A stretch of DNA of 64,000 nt from Candidatus Omnitrophota bacterium (GTDB taxonomy: Bacteria > Omnitrophota > Gorgyraeia > Zapsychrales > Aceulaceae): assembly GCA_028693815.1 (NCBI GenBank), contig JAQUUP010000001.1, positions 8,433 through 72,432 of the forward strand, read 5' to 3'. Position 1 is the first letter of the stretch. Every line of letters starts with the position of its first letter. Shown piece after piece: positions 1,646 through 16,253 of this stretch. The notes beneath the pieces are model-generated. The model saw only the letters and a program-made list of their open reading frames with translations, was not told the DNA's origin and made no database searches. The translations under genes were made by a program, and so were the position numbers.

Positions 1646-3478
1646 TTATTCTACGGTTACCGATTTAGCCAAATTTCTTGGCTGATCAACGTCATTACCT
1701 CGTGCAACAGAAATATAATACGCAATCAATTGTAGTGGCACAACCGTAAGAATGGGGGTAAGCATTTTATGAATCAAAGGAATATAAATCACATTGTTTG
1801 CATGTTGACTAATAACGCGATCGCCTTCGCTTGCAATAGCAATAATTTTTCCTTTACGTGCACGAATTTCTTGAATATTAGAAATCATTTTTTCATACGT
1901 ATCTGACTCAGGAACAATGCAAACAACCGCGCGATATTCATCAATCAATGCAATCGGTCCGTGCTTCATTTCTCCTGCAGCATAGCCTTCAGCCGGAATA
2001 TAAGAAATTTCTTTTAACTTTAAGGCTCCCTCGAGTGCTGAAGGAAAATTAATATTTCGGCCTAAAAATAAAAAGCACCCAAAATGCGAATTAGCTTTAG
2101 CTACTTTCGCAATCTTTGTCCTAAGTTTCAAAATCTTTAAAATTGCGGCTGGCGCTTTTTTAAGACCTTTGATTATTTCTGCAGCCTTGAGAGGTGTAAT
2201 TTTCTTCTTTATAAGGCTTAATTTCAACGCAAAAAGATACAGCATGCCAAGCTGCGCTGTATACGCTTTTGTAGATGCAACACCAATTTCCGGGCCTGCA
2301 TGCGTATACAAAACACCATCTGATTCACGCGCAAGAGAAGATCCAACAACATTGCATATGGAAATTACTTTTGCACCCTTGGAACTTGCCTCTCGAACAG
2401 CTGCCAAAGTATCGGCTGTTTCGCCAGACTGGCTGATCGCAATCACAAGAGTTTTTTTATCAATAATAGGTGTCCGATATCGAAACTCGCTTGAAACATC
2501 AATCAAAACAGGCACGCGTGCTAACTGCTCAATAATATATTTTCCAACAAGGCCAGCATGATACGCTGTTCCGCAGGCAACAATCACAATATTATTAATT
2601 CTTTGAAGATCACTATCTTTTAAAGAAATTCCCTCTAAAACAACCTTGTTTCCCTTAATACGGCTTGAAAACATGCGCGCTAAAACTTTAGGCTGCTCAT
2701 AAATTTCTTTCAGCATGAAATGCGCAAAACCTTCTTTTTGAACAGAATCAATCTTAAGCGAGACTTGATGAACTTTATATTTTACTTTCTTTCCAGCTAA
2801 ATTAAAAATAGAGATGCCTTTTCTGGTCATATCAGCAATCTCTCCGTCTTTAAGATAAACGATCTTGCGCGTCTTATCTAAAATGGCAGGAACATCCGAG
2901 GCAATAAAATTTTCATTCTTACCCATTCCAATAATAAGCGGAGAACCAAGGCGAGCGGCAATCAATTGATCTGGATGATTAGAGCTAATAACACCGATGG
3001 CAAACGATCCTTTAAGCTTGCGCACAGTCTTTCGAACAGCCTCGAGAAGATTGCCTTTGTACGAAAAAGAAATCAAATGCGCAATAACTTCAGAGTCTGT
3101 TTCGGATAAAAATTTATAGCCCTTACTTTTTAGGAAATCTTTAATCTCTTGATAATTCTCAACAATTCCATTATGAACAATCAAAAACTTTCCAGATGAA
3201 TCAAAGTGAGGATGAGCATTTATTTTTGTAGGCTTGCCGTGCGTTGCCCAGCGTGTATGTGAGATCCCTAAGCAACCCTCAGCAATAGGATGGGCTTCAA
3301 GGAGGTCAGAAAGATTCTGAATCTTTCCCTGCGTTTTACAAAGATTGATTTTATGATTTTGATTCGCTACAACACCAATGCCACATGAATCGTACCCCCG
3401 ATATTCTAGGCGCTTTAATGCGCTTAACAAAATGGGCTGTGCATTCTTGTCGCCAATATATCCTACGATTCCACACAT
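1646..3478 (-). CDS. glmS: Glutamine--fructose-6-phosphate aminotransferase
   Basis: 610 aa; MCGIVGYIG Ntn-amidotransferase start with catalytic Cys2; two SIS domains; C-terminal ...AKSVTVE. Confidence 0.95.
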   Translation of the reverse strand: MCGIVGYIGDKNAQPILLSALKRLEYRGYDSCGIGVVANQNHKINLCKTQGKIQNLSDLLEAHPIAEGCLGISHTRWATHGKPTKINAHPHFDSSGKFLIVHNGIVENYQEIKDFLKSKGYKFLSETDSEVIAHLISFSYKGNLLEAVRKTVRKLKGSFAIGVISSNHPDQLIAARLGSPLIIGMGKNENFIASDVPAILDKTRKIVYLKDGEIADMTRKGISIFNLAGKKVKYKVHQVSLKIDSVQKEGFAHFMLKEIYEQPKVLARMFSSRIKGNKVVLEGISLKDSDLQRINNIVIVACGTAYHAGLVGKYIIEQLARVPVLIDVSSEFRYRTPIIDKKTLVIAISQSGETADTLAAVREASSKGAKVISICNVVGSSLARESDGVLYTHAGPEIGVASTKAYTAQLGMLYLFALKLSLIKKKITPLKAAEIIKGLKKAPAAILKILKLRTKIAKVAKANSHFGCFLFLGRNINFPSALEGALKLKEISYIPAEGYAAGEMKHGPIALIDEYRAVVCIVPESDTYEKMISNIQEIRARKGKIIAIASEGDRVISQHANNVIYIPLIHKMLTPILTVVPLQLIAYYISVARGNDVDQPRNLAKSVTVE

Positions 3479-8820: not shown

Positions 8821-8872
8821 GGGGGCGAAATCCGGAATCGCGAAGAGCACAATCATCTTCGCCCCCTTTTTT
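8821..8872 (+). terminator. Rho-independent terminator downstream of uppP (GC-rich stem + T6)
   Basis: GGGGGCGAA...(inner GCGAAG/CTTCGC stem)...CTTCGCCCCC followed by TTTTTT at 8867-8872. Confidence 0.45.
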
Positions 8873-9081
8873 AAAATATCAATTCGCTGTCCTGTTATTT
8901 CAATAATATAAGAAATAAAAAAGTCCGCCTAAAAGATGAACTTTTTTTCAGGTTTATTCTACAAGATTCTGCGCAAAAGCAATAAAGCAAAGAAAAGCCC
9001 CGCAGCCTTCATATGTCTCTCGATGCTGCTTATGCTTTTTATGTTTTTCACAATCAAATGACCATCAAAACAATTAAAGAA

Positions 9082-9756
9082 TTATTCAACTTCTACAATT
9101 AAATCCCCTAAATGATGACAACAGGAGCACATATTCCCCTGTCCGCGCAGGCGAAGTTTTTGCCCATGGCGCGTTCCTGGCTTAATTTTAAGGGATATCT
9201 CTTTGCCATTATGATTAAACTTAGCCTCGCCGCCATTCATAAGCAAATTTTGCGGAATCTGAATCCTTGCAATAATATCTGTTATTTCCTGCCGAACAGA
9301 ATGGTTTTTCTGGAAATTTCCACCTGCTCCGAAAGAATAATGATGCGAATGACCCTGAACGCCTCCTATATGCTCAAAGATATCAAAAAATCCATCCTCT
9401 TCAAAAGATCTAGAATAATATTCTCCGTCGGATGTTTTTTTTGATGCCGCGGAGAATCCTCGAAGATGCCTAAGAATTTCATCAAAATCAAACCCCTGCG
9501 AATAAGCAAAATCTCCTTGAACCCCCGTAGATGACCCATGTTGATACGAATCATATTCCTGTCGACGTTTTTTATCATTCAAAACATAGTATGCCTCAGA
9601 AATTTCTTTAAATTTCTCCTCGGCTTTTACCTTTTTACCTGCAACCACGCGATCCGGATGATATTTAAGCGCAAGCCTCCGGTAAGCCTTTTTGATCTCC
9701 GCAAGACTGGCGTTCTGCGTCACTCCTAAAATTTTATAATAATCTTTATTTAACAC
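9082..9756 (-). CDS. DnaJ-like co-chaperone (J-domain + G/F region + single C-terminal domain, no zinc finger)
   Basis: [32 protein letters not shown]-domain with HPD; C-terminal KLRLRGQG...GDLIVEVE resembles a DnaJ CTD. Confidence 0.8.
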
Positions 9757-9861
9757 TATCTACTCCATCGCCAGCTCAAACACATACCACATCGTCTCTC
9801 AGCTCTTTTACGTAAATTTATCAAACCCTATACTGATCAAACAAATCAATATTGCTCACCG

Positions 9862-10479
9862 CTATTTCTTTTTTGGCAAATAGATAATTAACTTATTATC
9901 TTGTTTCTCCGTTTTCATCTTAGCTGTATCCGCGTCCTGCGGCAAAGGTATAGTTTTCATAAAAGAACCAAAACTTTTTATCTGAAGGGACTGATTAAGT
10001 CCCTCTTGTTTCTCTTGCGTAGAGTACTCCCCTTTCACTGTAACCGAATGCTGATTAATCTGAATATCAACTTTGTCTTGATCCATGCCTGTCATGTCAA
10101 ATTCAATCGTATACCCATCAAGAGTCTTATTAATATTAACCGCAGAATCAAAACTCATATTATTGACAAAAGCTCCCCTTGCTAACCCAGAACGCCCAAA
10201 TGAATCCTGAAACATTAAATCCATCGCTGCCTGCATCCGATCCATTTCCTCAAACGGGTCCCAAACAAATCCGCTTTTAACCCGCGGGTGCATTGTAGAG
10301 TCAGTATATTGTTTCTGTTTTTCTGCTTCTAATTCATCAACACGTTTTTGCAATACCAAAATCTGTTTCTTCAGCTCTATAATATCTTTTGTTTCCTGAG
10401 CAAAAAGCGGAATATTATACAAAAAAATTCCAACAACAATAAATATCCCCACTGTTATTAAGATTCTTTTGTTTCTCAT
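9862..10479 (-). CDS. Membrane-anchored small heat-shock protein (N-terminal TM helix + coiled coil + alpha-crystallin domain)
   Basis: 205 aa; hydrophobic ILITVGIFIVVGIFLY; ELKKQILVLQKRVDELEAEKQKQ coiled coil; ACD-like C-terminal half (TVKGEYSTQEK...GSFMKTIPLP..NKLIIYLPKK). Confidence 0.65.
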   Translation of the reverse strand: MRNKRILITVGIFIVVGIFLYNIPLFAQETKDIIELKKQILVLQKRVDELEAEKQKQYTDSTMHPRVKSGFVWDPFEEMDRMQAAMDLMFQDSFGRSGLARGAFVNNMSFDSAVNINKTLDGYTIEFDMTGMDQDKVDIQINQHSVTVKGEYSTQEKQEGLNQSLQIKSFGSFMKTIPLPQDADTAKMKTEKQDNKLIIYLPKKK

Positions 10480-10557
10480 ATTGCACCTCCTACAAATATA
10501 CTCTTTACCTTTCCTCCTATAATGCCATAATGATAGGGGGAAACACCCCCCCCATCA

Positions 10558-10935
10558 TTATGTTTTAATAACTATTTTCTGAGGCTGCGCTTCTTCAGAT
10601 TTTGATAATGAAACTTTTAGAACCCCATCCGTATACTCAGCCTTAATCTTTTCTCTATCGATTTGTGTATTAATTTCAAATCGGCGCTCAAAAGAAACAG
10701 GCCTTCTTTCTCTATGAAGAAGCGTATATTCCTTACCAATTTCCTCTTTCTGCTTCTTTCCTTGAATAATAAGCTGATTGCCATCCAGATTAAGATCAAG
10801 TGAATTTTTGTCGACACCCGGCATTTCTACAGCAATAATAATTTCTTTATCCTTCTCATATATATTGACAAATGGAGCAACAGTCGTCTCCTCTTCATCT
10901 TTATTTTTTCTAAACTTTTCTAACATCTTAATCAC
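10558..10935 (-). CDS. Hsp20/alpha-crystallin family small heat-shock protein
   Basis: 125 aa; APFVNIYEKDKEIIIAVEMPGVDKNSLDLNLDGNQLIIQGKK...ERRFEI...DGVLKVSLSK classic ACD. Confidence 0.85.
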   Translation of the reverse strand: MIKMLEKFRKNKDEEETTVAPFVNIYEKDKEIIIAVEMPGVDKNSLDLNLDGNQLIIQGKKQKEEIGKEYTLLHRERRPVSFERRFEINTQIDREKIKAEYTDGVLKVSLSKSEEAQPQKIVIKT

Positions 10936-10976
10936 CTCCTATTTTAACCTCCGAAAAATGAGAAGTTCGCACTGGG

Positions 10977-11447
10977 TTATTTAACATCTATACTAATTTG
11001 TTTTGGCTTTGCTTCCTCTTTTTTTGGTAATGTCAGCGTAAGCACCCCATCTTGATATTTTGCATCAACTTTATTAACATCAACAGAAGCTGGTAAAGGA
11101 ATCGTCCTGAAAAAACTTCCATAAAACCGCTCTGTTTTAAAATATTTTTCTTCCTTTACTTCTGTATCCTTTTTTTTCTCACCCTTTAAAATAAGGCTGC
11201 CGTCATGTATAGAAACTTCAATTTCATCTTTAGTTAAGCCTGGCAAATCAGCCTTAACCAAAAGACTATCTTTTGAATCATATACATCCACAGCTGGAGC
11301 CCATTGTCCACCCAACAATGTTGTGTCCCCTAAAGGATTTCGCGCTAAAGAAAAATCAAAAAGTTGATTCATTTGCTTTTGGATTCCCTCTAATTCAGAG
11401 AAAGGATCCACCCACCAATTATCTTTTCTATAAGGTACAAGTGTCAT
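10977..11447 (-). CDS. Hsp20/alpha-crystallin family small heat-shock protein
   Basis: 156 aa; WAPAVDVYDSKDSLLVKADLPGLTKDEIEVSIHDGSLILKGEKK...GSFFRTIPLPASVD...DGVLTLTLPKK. Confidence 0.85.
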   Translation of the reverse strand: MTLVPYRKDNWWVDPFSELEGIQKQMNQLFDFSLARNPLGDTTLLGGQWAPAVDVYDSKDSLLVKADLPGLTKDEIEVSIHDGSLILKGEKKKDTEVKEEKYFKTERFYGSFFRTIPLPASVDVNKVDAKYQDGVLTLTLPKKEEAKPKQISIDVK

Positions 11448-11590
11448 TGTAACCGCCTCCTTAATTCAAAGCTTTATTCCTATTTTTTTAAATTTTTCCT
11501 TGATTAAATCACCCAAAGTTCACCTGAACGATGAATTTCTCAAAAAATCTCCATTTCCTTCACCTCCTTTCAACTTAACCAATCTATCGA

Positions 11591-11617
11591 TTGGCACTCT
11601 ACCATAAGGAGTGCCAA
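11591..11617 (-). promoter_or_regulatory. CIRCE-like inverted repeat (TTGGCACTC-N9-GAGTGCCAA) between hspR and the first hsp20
   Basis: Perfect 9-bp arms with a 9-bp spacer, one symmetric substitution away from the HrcA operator consensus TTAGCACTC-N9-GAGTGCTAA; 143 bp upstream of the hsp20 start at 11447. Confidence 0.55.
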
Positions 11618-11634
11618 TTCCTAGGTAAAAAATT

Positions 11635-11955
11635 TTATCTCTTTTTTTTAATCTTAAATGTTCCTTTTTCCATTTCAAGTATCACCTTAAGTCCAGGTAT
11701 CTTTACGCTATGCTTCTCCATAAAAAACCAGCACCGCTGAGCTTCTTTTAATTCACGCTTTGAATACAATCTCGACTCCCCCTCATTCTTACGAGCAGGA
11801 GAAACAATACCCTCTTTATCTAATTGTTTTAAAACCCAAATAGGAATTTTTAAAATTTTACATACAATTCCCGTCGTATAAATAGGAACATCAGGCTCAA
11901 TATAAACCTCTTCAAAATCCTCACTATTTTTTATTTTCTTTGATGCCATGACCAC
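11635..11955 (-). CDS. hspR: MerR-family heat-shock regulator (HspR-like)
   Basis: 106 aa; IYTTGIVCKILKIPIWVLKQLDKEGIVSPARKNEGESRLYSKRELKEAQRC matches the MerR/HspR HTH (YTI..aa.l.g..pqtLR.Yer.GL..P.R..gg.R.YS..dl); first gene of the hsp20-dnaJ operon. Confidence 0.7.
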   Translation of the reverse strand: MVMASKKIKNSEDFEEVYIEPDVPIYTTGIVCKILKIPIWVLKQLDKEGIVSPARKNEGESRLYSKRELKEAQRCWFFMEKHSVKIPGLKVILEMEKGTFKIKKKR

Positions 11956-11975
11956 TTTCCTTTTTAACTAATCTA

Positions 11976-12040
11976 AATATACAACTTTTCGAAATATTTG
12001 TCAAGTATTATCGAAATATTTATTTCGATAATCGAAATAT
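11976..12040 (-). promoter_or_regulatory. Sigma70-like promoter (TTGACA-N17-TATATT, minus strand) overlapping a palindromic operator with three TCGAAATAT half-sites
   Basis: On the minus strand: -35 at 11999-12004, -10 at 11976-11981, RBS AAAGGAAAG before the hspR ATG. Perfect palindrome TATCGAAATA-TT-TATTTCGATA at 12009-12030; additional TCGAAATAT copies at 12032-12040 and inside the spacer (11989-11997). Confidence 0.5.
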
Positions 12041-12175
12041 ATCTAAAACCGTTTCCCGAAAAAATACTGCGGTCTATCCACCGCCAATTCTCTGGCAGAG
12101 ATAAAAATGCTTCGATTAACATCAATATAGCTTGAAAAAATGAAGAAAGGGAAGGCAAAAGCCTTCCCTTTTATT

Positions 12176-12252
12176 TGGTAGCCCCAACGGGATTCGAACC
12201 CGTGTCTGATGACTGAGAATCACCTGTCCTAACCAGGCTAGACGATGGGGCC
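12176..12252 (-). tRNA. tRNA-Glu (anticodon CUC), CCA encoded
   Basis: Reverse complement folds as a cloverleaf: acceptor GGCCCCA/TGGGGCT, D-arm TCGTCTAGCCTGGTTAGGAC, anticodon stem GGTGA/TCATC with loop TTCTCAG, T-arm ACGGGTTCGAATCCCGT, then ACCA. Confidence 0.75.
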
Positions 12253-12441
12253 ATATATTCTATTCTAAAAACCTTTAAAAAAGATTATCTAATCGCCTTC
12301 TCTAGAAAAAAAACAGTAGGCGAGTAAAATAATATCACATCTATCAGTATGGTCAACAAAAATTATTGGCCCTAATTTTAATTTACTCTTTTAAACAAAT
12401 CCTTTTCCAAAAATAATAATTTCTCTAAAACGGAATTAAGG

Positions 12442-12511: not shown

Positions 12512-13714
12512 ATGTCTATACACATTGGTGTCGGTTTTAGTAAAGATGAAAATCCCTTCCGTGCAGCACAAAATGCTGCTGCGCAAGCTAAAATCCAAAC
12601 AAAAGAAAATCCTGTCCACCTTGTCATTATTTTTTCAACAATCCATTACAGCCGAATCGAAACAATACGGGTTGTCAGGGAAACTTTTCCTGACGCTAAG
12701 ATCGTAGGGTGCTCAACAAGCGGTCTTATTCTTTCGAAAACCATTGAAACATGGGGCGTCTCTATTTTAGCCATCGGATCCCAAGAAATTCATTTTGGTG
12801 TTAGCTGTATTAAAAATATCAGCAGAGACAAAATTAATTTAGATTCTAGTGAAATTGCAAAAAAAACACTCAAAGACTTTGGTCTAAATCGTCGGCAAAT
12901 ATCGCTTCTTTTAACCGACGGCCTTTCCCAAAACAATTCTATGCTTCTTAAAGGAATTCAAGAATCTCTAGGTCTCCTCTCCCCTATCCTTGGGGCCGGC
13001 AGCAGCGATGACTTCCAATCAAAAAAGACATATCAATATTTTGAGAATGAAATCTTAACAGACTCTGCTGCTGTCATCATTATGGGTGGACGGATGACAG
13101 CTGGGTTTTCTAGTCAACACGGGTGGAAACCTCTAGGAAAACCGCGCATCATTACAAAAGCAGAAAAAAATATTATTAAGAAAATTAACAATAAAAAAGC
13201 CATTTCCATTTATGAAGAATTCTTCGCAGATCAAGCCGCTTCTCTTTTTTCAAATCGTTTAAATCGCATGAGAGACTTTTATCCTTTAGGCATGCTGATA
13301 GAAGGTGAAAAAAAATATCTCTTACAACAAGTTGTAAACGTAACCCATGAGGGCGACCTCATCTGCCAAGGTGAAATTCCAGAAGGAACAGAAGTTCATA
13401 TTATGATTGGAAACAAAGACTCTTGTCGGGATTCTACACTTGCGGCTGCTTGTGAAGTAAAAGAATCTCTTTTTGGAAGAACTCCCGATGTTATTATTGT
13501 TTTTGAGTCTGTTTCAAGGCAGAAATTATTAGGCCGTAACGTTTTTCAAGAAATTCAGATTATCAAAGAAGTTCTAGGAGAAAACGTTCCTATTTTTGGA
13601 ATGTATGCTTACGGAGAATTTGCCCCCTTAGGAACAGCGGGACAAGCTGGACAATCTTTTTTACAAAACGAAACGATATCTATCTTAGCTATTGAACACC
13701 ACAAGGTTTATTAG
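12512..13714 (+). CDS. FIST-domain sensory protein (FIST_N + FIST_C)
   Basis: 400 aa; N-terminal pattern ...VHLVIIFSTIHYS...FPDAKIVGCSTSGLI resembles FIST_N; the size and position upstream of a histidine kinase are typical of FIST proteins. Confidence 0.5.
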   Translation: MSIHIGVGFSKDENPFRAAQNAAAQAKIQTKENPVHLVIIFSTIHYSRIETIRVVRETFPDAKIVGCSTSGLILSKTIETWGVSILAIGSQEIHFGVSCIKNISRDKINLDSSEIAKKTLKDFGLNRRQISLLLTDGLSQNNSMLLKGIQESLGLLSPILGAGSSDDFQSKKTYQYFENEILTDSAAVIIMGGRMTAGFSSQHGWKPLGKPRIITKAEKNIIKKINNKKAISIYEEFFADQAASLFSNRLNRMRDFYPLGMLIEGEKKYLLQQVVNVTHEGDLICQGEIPEGTEVHIMIGNKDSCRDSTLAAACEVKESLFGRTPDVIIVFESVSRQKLLGRNVFQEIQIIKEVLGENVPIFGMYAYGEFAPLGTAGQAGQSFLQNETISILAIEHHKVY

Positions 13715-13763
13715 TATATTAAATCAAGAGATTAACTAAAGCTTCAAATTAACGACATTACCT

Positions 13764-15302
13764 ATGCTAAACATTACAAGCTCTTCTGTTGATATTACTT
13801 TTTTTGCGATTGTTGGAATTACAATTCTAACAATAATCGCAACACTCGTTTTTATTCTGATTAATAAAATTGATCAAATCAAAGAGCTTCACTCTGCCTT
13901 AAAAAAACTTAAACTATCGTTTAACAACTTGGATGAACAAGCAAAGCTTATTTTAAAAACTGATCTTGAGCTTAACCGTGCGCAAGAAGAATTAGACAAG
14001 CGTCTCTCTAGCCTTGACGCCCTTCAAAGAACATCTCGGCTTATTAGCACTACTTTAGATGAATCTGAAATCTTTCGAAGACTAGATAAAGCACTCATGC
14101 TTCAACTTGGATTTGAACAAATCCTCATCCTTACTTTTGATAAAGAAAGGAATCTAATTACTCGTGTCAATTCTGGATTTTCAGACTCTAAAACTCAAGA
14201 AATTTCTAGTCACCTTACAAAAGACCCCGTATTTTCTTCTTTATTTAAAGAAGGCTACGCTCTATCTTCTGCAACAGCATCCAAAGCAAAAAAAGAAAGA
14301 ATTATCAATGTTTTTGGATCCAATAATTTTATTTTATCTCCCATCCTAACTCAAGATGGAACCATTGGTGTTATTTTCGTAGGAAATCAAAATGAAATGC
14401 AAACAGTATCAGAAGCTGATGAAGAAATGGTTTCTATTCTCACAAATCAAATTGGTCAATCTCTTGAAAACGCACAACTTTTTGAACAAGTATACACCTC
14501 CCGACAAGAGCTTGAATCAAAGATTCAGGAGCGAACCAAACAACTTGCTTCCGCCTTAGAAAAAGTACAAAAAATTAGTCGAACAAAAACCGAATTTGTT
14601 TCCGCAGTCTCCCATGAGTTAAGAACTCCATTGACGTCTATTAAAGGATACGCCTCAATTTTGATGTCAGGGAAACTTGGCGAAATTCCAGACAAAGTCA
14701 AAGAGCGGTTAGAAAAAATTAATAAACATTCGAATAATCTTGTCGAACTCATCAATGAACTTTTAGATATTTCTCGCATTGAATCTGGACGTATCGATAT
14801 GAATTTTGAAAAAGTTCCTATAAAAAATCTCATTGAAAACACCCGCGACCTTTTGATGCCTCAGATGAAAGAAAAACAAATCACATTTTCTTGCGACATA
14901 CCCGAACAAATTCCAGATATTTTAATCGATCAAAAACATATTGAACGTGTTTTTATCAACCTTTTAAGCAATGCTATTAAATACACACCAAATGGGAAAA
15001 TTAATATCAAAGCCTCTTACAACGAAAAAGAAGTCCTTTTTGAAATTCAAGACACTGGATCTGGTATCAAAGCAGAAGACCTTCCTCGCCTATTTGATGA
15101 GTTTTATCGAGTTGAGAACGACCTTAATCAAAGCATCAAAGGGACAGGGTTAGGGCTTTCTTTAGTTAAACACATCATCACAGCACATCAAGGGGAAATA
15201 TGGGCTACCAGCGAAATCAACGTCGGAACAACATTTCATTTTACAATCCCTATTACCCGAAAAGAAGAAAAACCTGATGCGCAAGAAACTTTAAGCCCAT
15301 AA
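13764..15302 (+). CDS. Sensor histidine kinase (TM + coiled coil + GAF + HisKA + HATPase_c)
   Basis: 512 aa; H-box [19 protein letters not shown]; G-boxes GTGLGLSLVKHII; GAF-like region at about 100-240. Confidence 0.85.
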   Translation: MLNITSSSVDITFFAIVGITILTIIATLVFILINKIDQIKELHSALKKLKLSFNNLDEQAKLILKTDLELNRAQEELDKRLSSLDALQRTSRLISTTLDESEIFRRLDKALMLQLGFEQILILTFDKERNLITRVNSGFSDSKTQEISSHLTKDPVFSSLFKEGYALSSATASKAKKERIINVFGSNNFILSPILTQDGTIGVIFVGNQNEMQTVSEADEEMVSILTNQIGQSLENAQLFEQVYTSRQELESKIQERTKQLASALEKVQKISRTKTEFVSAVSHELRTPLTSIKGYASILMSGKLGEIPDKVKERLEKINKHSNNLVELINELLDISRIESGRIDMNFEKVPIKNLIENTRDLLMPQMKEKQITFSCDIPEQIPDILIDQKHIERVFINLLSNAIKYTPNGKINIKASYNEKEVLFEIQDTGSGIKAEDLPRLFDEFYRVENDLNQSIKGTGLGLSLVKHIITAHQGEIWATSEINVGTTFHFTIPITRKEEKPDAQETLSP

Positions 15303-15323
15303 AAAAGGATTGAAAGAAAACAA

Positions 15324-16253
15324 ATGAATCAATTAAAAATCTTAACGCTTGACGATGATCCAGATATTCTCGATGTTTTAGAATTAACCCTATCAGGAGA
15401 CTACATTGTTTTTCAAGGATCAAACGGAGAAGAAGGCGTCAGACTCGCTAAAGCTTGCTCCCCAGATTTAATCATCACAGACTATAAAATGCCAATCATG
15501 GATGGTCGTCAATTTTGTCGCATCATAAAAAAGGATATTTTATTGCAACATACGCCTATCATCATGCTCACAGGAAAAGGCGAAGTCAAAGATAAAGTTG
15601 GCGGACTTGAAGCTGGCGCAGACGACTATCTTGTAAAACCGTTTGAGCCAAATGAACTTTTGGCTAGAATCCGTATGATCTTGAGACGAACCAAACGTAG
15701 CCTAGATGCCAATCCTCTAACGCGCCTTCCCGGGAACAACTCAATCATGGATGAACTTCAATATCGCATTCAAACCAAGGAGCCTTTTGCCGTCGGCTAT
15801 GCAGATTTAGATAAATTTAAAGCCTATAATGATATTTATGGCTTTGAAAAAGGCGATGAAATTATTAAAGAAACAGCTCGCATCATTATCAATGCATCCC
15901 AAGAAAAAGGCAACAACGAAACTTTTGTAGGGCACATTGGCGGCGATGACTTTGTTTTTATCTGCGAAGATGCCATTGCCGATGATATTGCTCAAGAAAT
16001 AATCAAACAATTTGATACGAAAGCACCGTTTTTTTATAACGAGAAAGACCGTAAAAAAGGCTATATTGTTGCAAAAAATCGCCAAGGCGAACAAATCACT
16101 ATCGGGCTTCTAGCGATCTCCATTGGAATTGTTAGCAGCCGCAAACAAGCTATTACACATATCGCTCAAGTGGCTGAAATCGGAGCGGAATTAAAGAAAT
16201 ATGCAAAAAGTATCGAAGGAAGTTCTTTTGTAAGGGATCAAAGGAATATTTAA
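15324..16253 (+). CDS. Response regulator REC-GGDEF with a non-canonical GGDDF signature
   Basis: REC: LTLDDDPDILDV...DLIITDYKMPIMDG...LTGKG...YLVKPF. GGDEF: PLTRLPGNN...YADLDKFKAYNDIYGFEKGDEII...GHIGGDDFVFI. Confidence 0.85.
   Translation: MNQLKILTLDDDPDILDVLELTLSGDYIVFQGSNGEEGVRLAKACSPDLIITDYKMPIMDGRQFCRIIKKDILLQHTPIIMLTGKGEVKDKVGGLEAGADDYLVKPFEPNELLARIRMILRRTKRSLDANPLTRLPGNNSIMDELQYRIQTKEPFAVGYADLDKFKAYNDIYGFEKGDEIIKETARIIINASQEKGNNETFVGHIGGDDFVFICEDAIADDIAQEIIKQFDTKAPFFYNEKDRKKGYIVAKNRQGEQITIGLLAISIGIVSSRKQAITHIAQVAEIGAELKKYAKSIEGSSFVRDQRNI

Follow-up and report, generated by a model that had tools for sequence, protein, structure and literature searches.

A 64,000-nucleotide stretch of Candidatus Omnitrophota DNA (assembly GCA_028693815.1, contig JAQUUP010000001.1; hereafter the window) carries a minus-strand heat-shock operon in which the gene for a small HspR-like regulator of the MerR family (merR) is followed by three hsp20 genes and a dnaJ-like gene. 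From comparison with related loci we propose that this operon is probably controlled by two repressors in series, the HspR-like protein at the operon promoter and HrcA at an inverted repeat for the control of chaperone expression (CIRCE) between merR and the chaperone genes. A literature search returned no paper on heat-shock regulation in Omnitrophota, and the scheme would give a first testable picture of it in this large uncultured phylum.

In this scheme the HspR-like protein, the product of the first gene, would repress its own very strong promoter by binding the inverted repeat TTTCGA-N3-TCGAAA, centered ~26 bp upstream of the −35 hexamer, and would then spread cooperatively over the −35 flank and the promoter spacer to single TTTCGA half-sites, which at intervals of 21–22 bp all face the same side of the DNA helix. 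HrcA would bind CIRCE 17 nt past the regulator stop codon and, in what is the weakest step of the scheme, would most likely block elongating RNA polymerase reading the chaperone genes from the upstream merR promoter. The regulator would then be expressed and autoregulated, with Hsp20 and the DnaJ-like protein (GroESL or ClpB in relatives) produced only once folding stress inactivates both repressors.

Orthologous loci came from a scan with one genome per species, which yielded 49 loci with relatives of the regulator (45–71% identity), each covered with ±6 kb of flanking DNA; counts out of 50 refer to the window plus these loci. Most carry labels of Omnitrophota metagenome-assembled genomes (MAGs) and the remainder are other or unclassified, the taxon labels being those given by the MAG depositors. 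Metagenome DNA was scanned with the pattern T5-N9-CIRCE, which is biased to T5 upstream of CIRCE and therefore gives no measure of how general the T-tract is outside merR loci. All functional statements below are inferred from sequence comparison.

The proposed operator array and its HspR-like regulator

Upstream of merR lies the best promoter-like site of the region, TTGACA-N17-TATATT, matching at 11 of 12 positions; in the aligned promoters it is kept in 33 loci, and in many of these a TGn precedes the −10 hexamer. The word TCGAAATAT has only three exact copies in the window (11989–11997, 12011–12019 and 12032–12040), and a fourth, inverted and with one mismatch, lies at 12020–12028. As copies with one mismatch show no window-wide enrichment, the signal is the clustering and not the word itself. 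Half-sites 1 and 2 form the perfect inverted repeat TTTCGA-TTA-TCGAAA, which we propose as the high-affinity site of the HspR-like protein. Half-sites 1, 3 and 4 are direct repeats at 21–22 bp, one overlapping the −35 flank and one within the spacer.

Half-sites 2 and 3 form a palindrome, TCGAAA-N6-TTTCGA, whose arms (12007–12018 and 12021–12032) are 100% complementary around a non-palindromic 2-nt center; a second, overlapping repeat spans 12018–12042. The original prediction, made from the window alone, had described this promoter, three repeat copies with one of them in the spacer, and an operator unlike the actinobacterial HspR-associated inverted repeat (HAIR), all of which our analysis bears out: the three exact copies fall at 11989–12040, and HAIR (CTTGAGT-N7-ACTCAAG, up to three mismatches) was not found near the operon in the window. 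Its perfect 22-bp palindrome does lie upstream of −35, with the correction that it is a 12-N2-12 structure and that the neighboring N3 repeat is the better conserved of the two.

Both geometries recur across the orthologous loci. TTTCGA-N3-TCGAAA, with at most two mismatches and within 200 bp upstream of merR, is present in 39/50 loci (17 perfect) at a fixed position relative to −35, against 26 matches in 470 kb elsewhere, or ~0.01 expected per 200 bp. With the same two mismatches allowed, TCGAAA-N6-TTTCGA is found in 38/50 (11 perfect), and the control spacings N5 and N7 in 4/50 and 2/50. Besides having more perfect copies, the N3 repeat is the only geometry common to the clade of the window and a second HspR-like clade. 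Most loci share the layout aTTTCGAnAATCGAAAaAAATATTTCGAaAAnAC-TTGACA-AATnTTTCGAaaTaTGn-TATATT upstream of merR. In three loci merR follows clpB, and in both that were examined (L035 and L036) the array and promoter stand upstream of clpB.

The regulator itself has a MerR-type winged helix-turn-helix (PF13411 over residues 24–92, 26.9 bits against a cut-off of 21.6), and its closest solved structures are GlnR/TnrA-type MerR proteins; a deposited protein of the same sequence is annotated as a MerR regulator and comes from a Candidatus Omnitrophica MAG. Its best NCBIfam match is HspR (NF047375; 40.1 bits, E 2.7e-10), under the curated cut-off of 105. Because the protein fails this model and HAIR is absent, we use 'HspR' as a functional analogy. 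The second Omnitrophota clade, of 87 amino acids, scores 72.1 bits against the same model, also under 105, and its loci carry at the corresponding place, ~19 bp upstream of −35, the repeat TTAGAATATCTAA (TTAGA-N3-TCTAA), with a partial second copy abutting −35. The two clades share the geometry of the repeat and differ in its sequence, and the operator therefore co-varies with the protein clade.

The case for binding of the array by the MerR-like protein rests mainly on this covariation and on the array staying with merR in every gene order. The layout is as expected for autoregulation, with the regulator encoded in the chaperone operon and the array at the operon promoter in 39/50 loci, and a near-consensus promoter with a 17-nt spacer fits repression and not MerR-type activation. 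The CbpA-like J-protein encoded in the operon hints, though this is only suggestive, at chaperone-modulated binding of the HspR-like protein. The proposed operator motif and its clade-specific variant would belong to an HspR-like family that current curated models miss, and the motifs are directly usable for regulon prediction in Omnitrophota MAGs.

One low-G+C subgroup (L013–L022, L045 and L049, labelled Gammaproteobacteria or Melainabacteria) has merR abutting hsp20, without CIRCE and without a T tract; its promoter context differs (…TTTAATATT…GGGTATAAT) and TTTCGA-N3-TCGAAA is retained.

A CIRCE element between regulator and chaperone genes

The CIRCE element of the window, TTGGCACTC-N9-GAGTGCCAA, begins 17 nt past the merR stop codon and matches TTAGCACTC-N9-GAGTGCTAA at 16/18 positions (2 mismatches), with arms that extend to 10 nt. 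It is unique in the window, where ~0.03 chance matches are expected even with three mismatches allowed. A CIRCE-like repeat stands at the same place, 15–34 nt (mode 17) past the merR stop, in 32/50 loci, and its N9 loop varies freely among these 32.

Arm position 3 is degenerate, being A in 14 and G in 18 loci on the left and T in 12 and C in 20 on the right, with joint counts equal to the expectation under independence and A·C mismatches in 9/32. This independence of the two sides points to a protein-binding operator and not an RNA stem. The window element had been described as differing from CIRCE by one symmetric base and as atypically placed at an operon for small heat-shock proteins (sHsps). 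The element is indeed there; its 'symmetric variant' is one of four freely occurring combinations at a purine/pyrimidine position that varies independently in each arm. The hsp20 cargo likewise stands for the window, and relatives have groES, clpB or hsp20-groESL behind the same element.

The merR-linked CIRCE lacks a recognizable promoter of its own. Of the merR-linked loci, 0/32 have a sigma-70-like site that scores 9/12 or better and ends close to CIRCE, compared with 12/12 groES-type CIRCE promoters and 14/960 (1.5%) random windows. When the search extends to 120 nt upstream of CIRCE, only 6/32 loci show any sigma-70 match, and its position is not consistent; for random windows the figure is 9%. 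The chaperone genes would therefore be read from the upstream promoter, and these loci show that CIRCE can, to judge by its placement, serve as an intercistronic control point instead of a promoter operator.

Individual promoter candidates were rejected. TTGAAA-16-TAAGAT, considered as an internal promoter in the window, stems from the conserved codons for ILEME and is not itself conserved. Inspection by eye disposed of a −10 box within the CIRCE loop (the N9 loops are unrelated), of a sigma-54 reading of TGGCAC (no TTGC at the right distance) and of a sigma-32 reading of CTTGAAA (no CCCCAT after it).

An A/T-only tract precedes CIRCE in every merR-linked locus. Positions −18 to −10 are A/T-only in 32/32 (consensus TAAATTTTTTTGCCTAAAA), TTT at −12 to −10 is invariant, and the tract is absent in 18/18 loci without CIRCE. 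Its spacing to CIRCE is constant at exactly 9 nt, in contrast to the distance from CIRCE to the Shine-Dalgarno sequence (SD), which ranges from 0 to >40 nt. The tract belongs to the CIRCE module. Tract and CIRCE also occur together in the short HspR-like clade, in L182 after a gene for a protease-Hsp20 fusion, and in the long groES leader of L178 (a 1.14-Mb Omnitrophota genome), ~100 nt downstream of a strong promoter; the tract is absent from three canonical hrcA promoters. The fusion gene, at 701–2014 in L182–L184, encodes a 437-residue protein with trypsin-like protease domains and an HSP20 domain, and the tract and CIRCE after it are followed by two hsp20 genes, groES and then, in place of groEL, a gene for an autotransporter-domain protein.

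Downstream of CIRCE an SD is conserved and the peptide encoded behind it is not. Where the gap between merR and hsp20 is long (L001–L007, L012, L024, L026 and L033), a strong SD (GAAAGGAGGTG) follows CIRCE directly, 100–150 nt before hsp20A. A conserved leader peptide was rejected, as the open reading frames (ORFs) after CIRCE run from 1 to 31 codons and are unrelated in sequence; the SD and mini-ORF may serve to load ribosomes, form a leader or be a relic.

The genes behind these control elements vary. Hsp20 follows merR in ~40/49 loci, and the triple-sHsp set including a membrane or exported paralog, which had seemed unusual, turns out to be the usual arrangement in the phylum; a DnaJ-like gene is present in only 3/50. 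Cargo behind merR-linked CIRCE is hsp20 in most loci, clpB in L009 and groES in L042, and in eight loci (six distinct groES proteins) it is one to three hsp20 genes followed by groES-groEL without a second CIRCE. In further relatives the CIRCE module stands in front of clpB-hrcA-grpE-dnaK-dnaJ. The original prediction thus holds for the conservation of its palindrome and of CIRCE in orthologous loci, and also in that both motifs lie upstream of other chaperone genes, the TTTCGA array at clpB and CIRCE before groES, clpB and hsp20-groESL. In L175–L177 and L179 (L175 ~2860–3000, for example) groES is immediately preceded by a lysine-rich ORF of ~46 codons that has a strong SD of its own; this ORF is probably in frame with groES, which would explain why many Omnitrophota GroES proteins are called with 142 and not 96 amino acids.

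Evidence for HrcA in the phylum comes from related metagenome contigs recovered by the T5-N9-CIRCE scan; a B. subtilis HrcA sequence served as a tblastn probe only, and its matches were validated independently. Omnitrophota HrcA passes TIGR00331 (220 bits against a cut-off of 197) and has 1493 homologues, several labelled Candidatus Omnitrophica. The contigs run in the order hflX, promoter, short HspR-like gene, T-tract and CIRCE, (hsp20) clpB, hrcA grpE dnaK dnaJ. The canonical hrcA promoter in related contigs reads TTGACA-N16-TGTTAAAAT-N6-CIRCE, and twelve groES loci (68–74% identity to Omnitrophota GroES) have TTGACA-N16-TATAAT overlapping the first CIRCE base. Since HrcA passes its model and CIRCE occupies hrcA and groES promoters, control by HrcA and CIRCE operates in the phylum.

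Three of these contigs, L086, L116 and L159, each have one co-directional string of heat-shock genes downstream of hflX, with a second promoter and CIRCE upstream of hrcA in L116 and L159 and not in L086. Omnitrophota HrcA is uniformly ~245 amino acids long against the 338 positions of the model (L116 ~8836–9579; relatives P0098–P0217) and matches in two stretches; an internal part of the usual HrcA appears to be missing.

Proposed repressors in series and competing explanations

Several points weigh against two repressors in series. By tblastn, hrcA was not found in the window or in the 49 ±6-kb loci, which are the only stretches that this search covered. The regulator lies under the HspR cut-off (40 against 105 bits) and HAIR is absent. 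The spacers of groES-type CIRCE promoters, a set selected for T5, contain T-rich tracts too, and the tract is therefore not specific to a roadblock context. Relatives with groESL downstream must keep a basal level of its expression, which speaks for additional promoters or leaky control. An internal promoter of weak or non-consensus type is possible, with TAAATT, including the stop codon, as its candidate hexamer and the purine at −9 as start. Such a promoter would divide the operon into two transcription units: its −10 (TAAATT/TAAAAT) would be formed partly by the merR stop and followed by a T-rich discriminator, and transcription would start 9 nt before CIRCE at a purine; HrcA would occlude it, and the HspR-like protein would control only merR and some read-through. 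Columns −20 to −15 do read (T/A)AAA(T/A)T; position 2 is A in 27/32 loci, position 6 is T in 26/32, and −9 is a purine in 28/32. A start near CIRCE would also be normal, as CIRCE starts 0–6 nt after the −10 hexamer in the canonical HrcA promoters of related contigs. We nevertheless think this arrangement rather unlikely: there is no −35 (−27 to −22 and −43 to −38 are A/G-rich coding sequence) and no TGn extension, 0/32 loci reach 9/12 in organisms whose heat-shock promoters are otherwise near-consensus, and the most invariant bases are those of the T-run and not the key −10 positions.

For two repressors in series, a specific and fairly doubtful extension gives the tract a role of its own. HrcA on a promoter-less CIRCE would act as a roadblock and the A/T tract would provide a weak RNA:DNA hybrid that releases the transcript, making the module a heat-releasable, protein-dependent terminator that sets an always-expressed regulator gene apart from its cargo and is reused before hsp20, groES and clpB across Omnitrophota. 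Footprints of halted E. coli polymerase place the active site ~14 bp upstream of the blocking protein; with HrcA as the block, the RNA:DNA hybrid in the stalled enzyme would consist of A:U/T pairs only, which suggests a release site. A full-text literature search found no paper tying CIRCE or HrcA to a roadblock mechanism, its single match being an unrelated review on PETase engineering. If both the AND-gate in series and the role of the A/T tract are true, they would amount to a new mode of action for HrcA, which is among the most widespread bacterial heat-shock repressors. The same bases might instead act in RNA, the U-tract as an RNase E/Y-type cleavage site or a fourU-like clamp on the SD and the CIRCE hairpin as a structure that stabilizes or clamps the mRNA, with HrcA dispensable there. 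sHsp genes are classic RNA thermometer targets, and in Bacillus and Rhodobacter an effect of CIRCE on mRNA stability has been reported; both facts would suit such a role. Under strict counting the U-run pairs with the SD in 9/30 minimum-free-energy folds, and visual inspection gives roughly 18 that pair with the SD region, the window among them with a 10-bp helix; U-runs, however, pair with any SD, and the folds are unspecific and inconsistent. The independence of arm position 3, its A·C mismatches in 9/32 loci and the lack of covariation, arms that keep to the HrcA consensus in deeply diverged lineages, a tract spacing fixed at 9 nt against an SD distance of 0 to >40 nt and the want of an Rfam thermometer match together make an RNA-level element unlikely, more so than an internal promoter. 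At the promoter, the TTTCGA array might be bound by another factor, or the MerR-like protein might be an activator. Most MerR-family proteins are activators, and binding of the array is predicted here from sequence. Against these, the array is strictly tied to merR operons regardless of gene order and changes along with the MerR clade, the HspR repressor is the closest family match, and the promoter combines consensus hexamers with an optimal 17-nt spacer, unlike the 19–20-nt spacers remodelled by MerR activators, so that we give this explanation very little credence.

The locus and its relation to known systems

Table 1. Coordinates of the features of the heat-shock operon and its upstream neighbor in the window.
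Feature	Position	Strand	Basis or remark
tRNA-Glu	12176–12252	minus	upstream neighbor of the operon
Terminator-like hairpin and T-run after tRNA-Glu	12146–12171	minus	hairpin/terminator reading
Primary inverted repeat TTTCGA-TTA-TCGAAA (half-sites 1 and 2)	12023–12037	–	perfect; center ~26 bp upstream of −35; proposed high-affinity site
Palindrome TCGAAA-N6-TTTCGA (half-sites 2 and 3)	12007–12032	–	12-nt arms, 2-nt center
Half-site 3 (ATATTTCGA)	12011–12019	minus	6 nt upstream of −35; 21 bp from half-site 1
Half-site 4 (ATATTTCGA)	11989–11997	minus	inside promoter spacer; 22 bp from half-site 3
Sigma-70-type promoter TTGACA-N17-TATATT	11976–12004	minus	11/12 positions match
HspR-like MerR-family regulator, 104 aa	11635–11949	minus	Pfam MerR_1 (PF13411)
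A/T-only tract (ATAAAATTTTTTA), including the merR stop codon	11626–11638	minus	T-run 10–15 nt upstream of CIRCE
CIRCE TTGGCACTC-N9-GAGTGCCAA, intercistronic; proposed HrcA operator	11591–11617	–	motif search
Strong Shine-Dalgarno GGAGG (11563–11567) and 4-codon mini-ORF ATG GAG ATT TTT TGA (11554–11540)	11540–11567	minus	downstream of CIRCE
Hsp20 paralog A, 156 aa	10977–11447	minus	Pfam HSP20
Hsp20 paralog B, 122 aa	10558–10926	minus	Pfam HSP20
Third Hsp20 paralog, 205 aa	9862–10479	minus	Pfam HSP20
DnaJ/CbpA-like J-protein, 224 aa	9082–9756	minus	Pfam DnaJ + DnaJ_C; DnaJ C-terminal domain partial
Terminator-like hairpin past the operon end	8987–9003	minus	hairpin reading

Pfam assignments (MerR_1, HSP20 three times, DnaJ plus DnaJ_C) support the operon as originally drawn, and the GTG start of the J-protein gene leaves the J domain intact. 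Also as predicted, the third Hsp20 begins with a basic segment, then a long hydrophobic stretch (MRNKRILITVGIFIVVGIFLYNIPLFA) and a heptad-like or coiled-coil-like linker, all read from the sequence. This signal-peptide- or anchor-like N-terminus (RNKR, a long hydrophobic run, …PLFAQE) is kept in many loci at 33–53% identity, and hints that this small heat-shock protein is exported or tethered to a membrane.

The terminator after tRNA-Glu insulates the heat-shock operon against transcription from upstream. An Rfam scan of 8900–12400 returned tRNA only, plus two sub-threshold matches over the tRNA terminator; one of them, to Termite-leu RNA (12110–12175, minus; 31.8 bits, gathering score 51), coincides in part with the terminator and probably just reflects its hairpin. 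The divergent neighbors on the plus strand (12512–16253) are genes for a FIST-domain protein and a GAF-HisKA-HATPase histidine kinase and one further ORF, a sensory system beside the operon. The G+C content of the window is ~36–44%. Logan contigs matching the rest of the window were short only and held no chaperone or hrcA genes.

The HspR/HAIR systems of Streptomyces, Mycobacterium and Deinococcus resemble the proposed one in having a small MerR protein, best matched by HspR and encoded in its own chaperone operon, and inverted repeats at a strong promoter with several sites each; several HspR repeats per promoter are described in S. coelicolor (PMC7464140). They differ in most particulars. 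The Omnitrophota regulator falls under the HspR model (40 against 105 bits) and is encoded by the first gene and not the last, its putative operator is the 15-bp TTTCGA-N3-TCGAAA and not the 21-bp CTTGAGT-N7-ACTCAAG, and the cargo in the clade of the window is sHsps, groESL or clpB and not dnaK-grpE-dnaJ.

Closer in logic are Helicobacter pylori and Campylobacter jejuni, in which HspR and HrcA both repress chaperone operons and both act at the promoter (PMC7464140, PMC6032397); high- and low-affinity sites of C. jejuni HspR have been mapped (PMC7464140). The likeness extends to two repressors on one chaperone unit, one good HspR site upstream of the core promoter with weaker flanking sites, a single CIRCE-like repeat for HrcA and a CbpA-like J-protein encoded with hspR. 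CIRCE in those organisms, however, lies on the start site or core promoter, whereas in Omnitrophota it is ~330 bp downstream, past the regulator coding sequence, promoter-less and accompanied by an A/T tract. With the class I HrcA-CIRCE system of the B. subtilis type the Omnitrophota element shares the 9-N9-9 repeat, groES/groEL cargo in relatives and an HrcA that passes the equivalog model; it differs in being intercistronic and promoter-less, in the R/Y degeneracy of position 3, in the A/T tract before it and in the short HrcA (245 against 338 aa).

LacI, CcpA and CodY are DNA-bound regulators that repress as roadblocks within transcription units. As in those systems, the operator here lies within the transcribed region, between the gene to be expressed and the genes to be silenced; for HrcA, our full-text literature search found no description of a roadblock, which is proposed here from sequence. 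ROSE (repression of heat-shock gene expression) and fourU elements, the RNA thermometers of sHsp genes, likewise place a hairpin between a U-run and a downstream SD before an sHsp gene; the Omnitrophota leader differs in having no Rfam match, no covariation and a hairpin with the sequence of a protein operator. Set against these systems, dual control by HspR and HrcA is known, and what is new is the sequence and geometry of the proposed operator, its division into two clades, the promoter-less CIRCE between regulator and cargo, and the invariant A/T tract.

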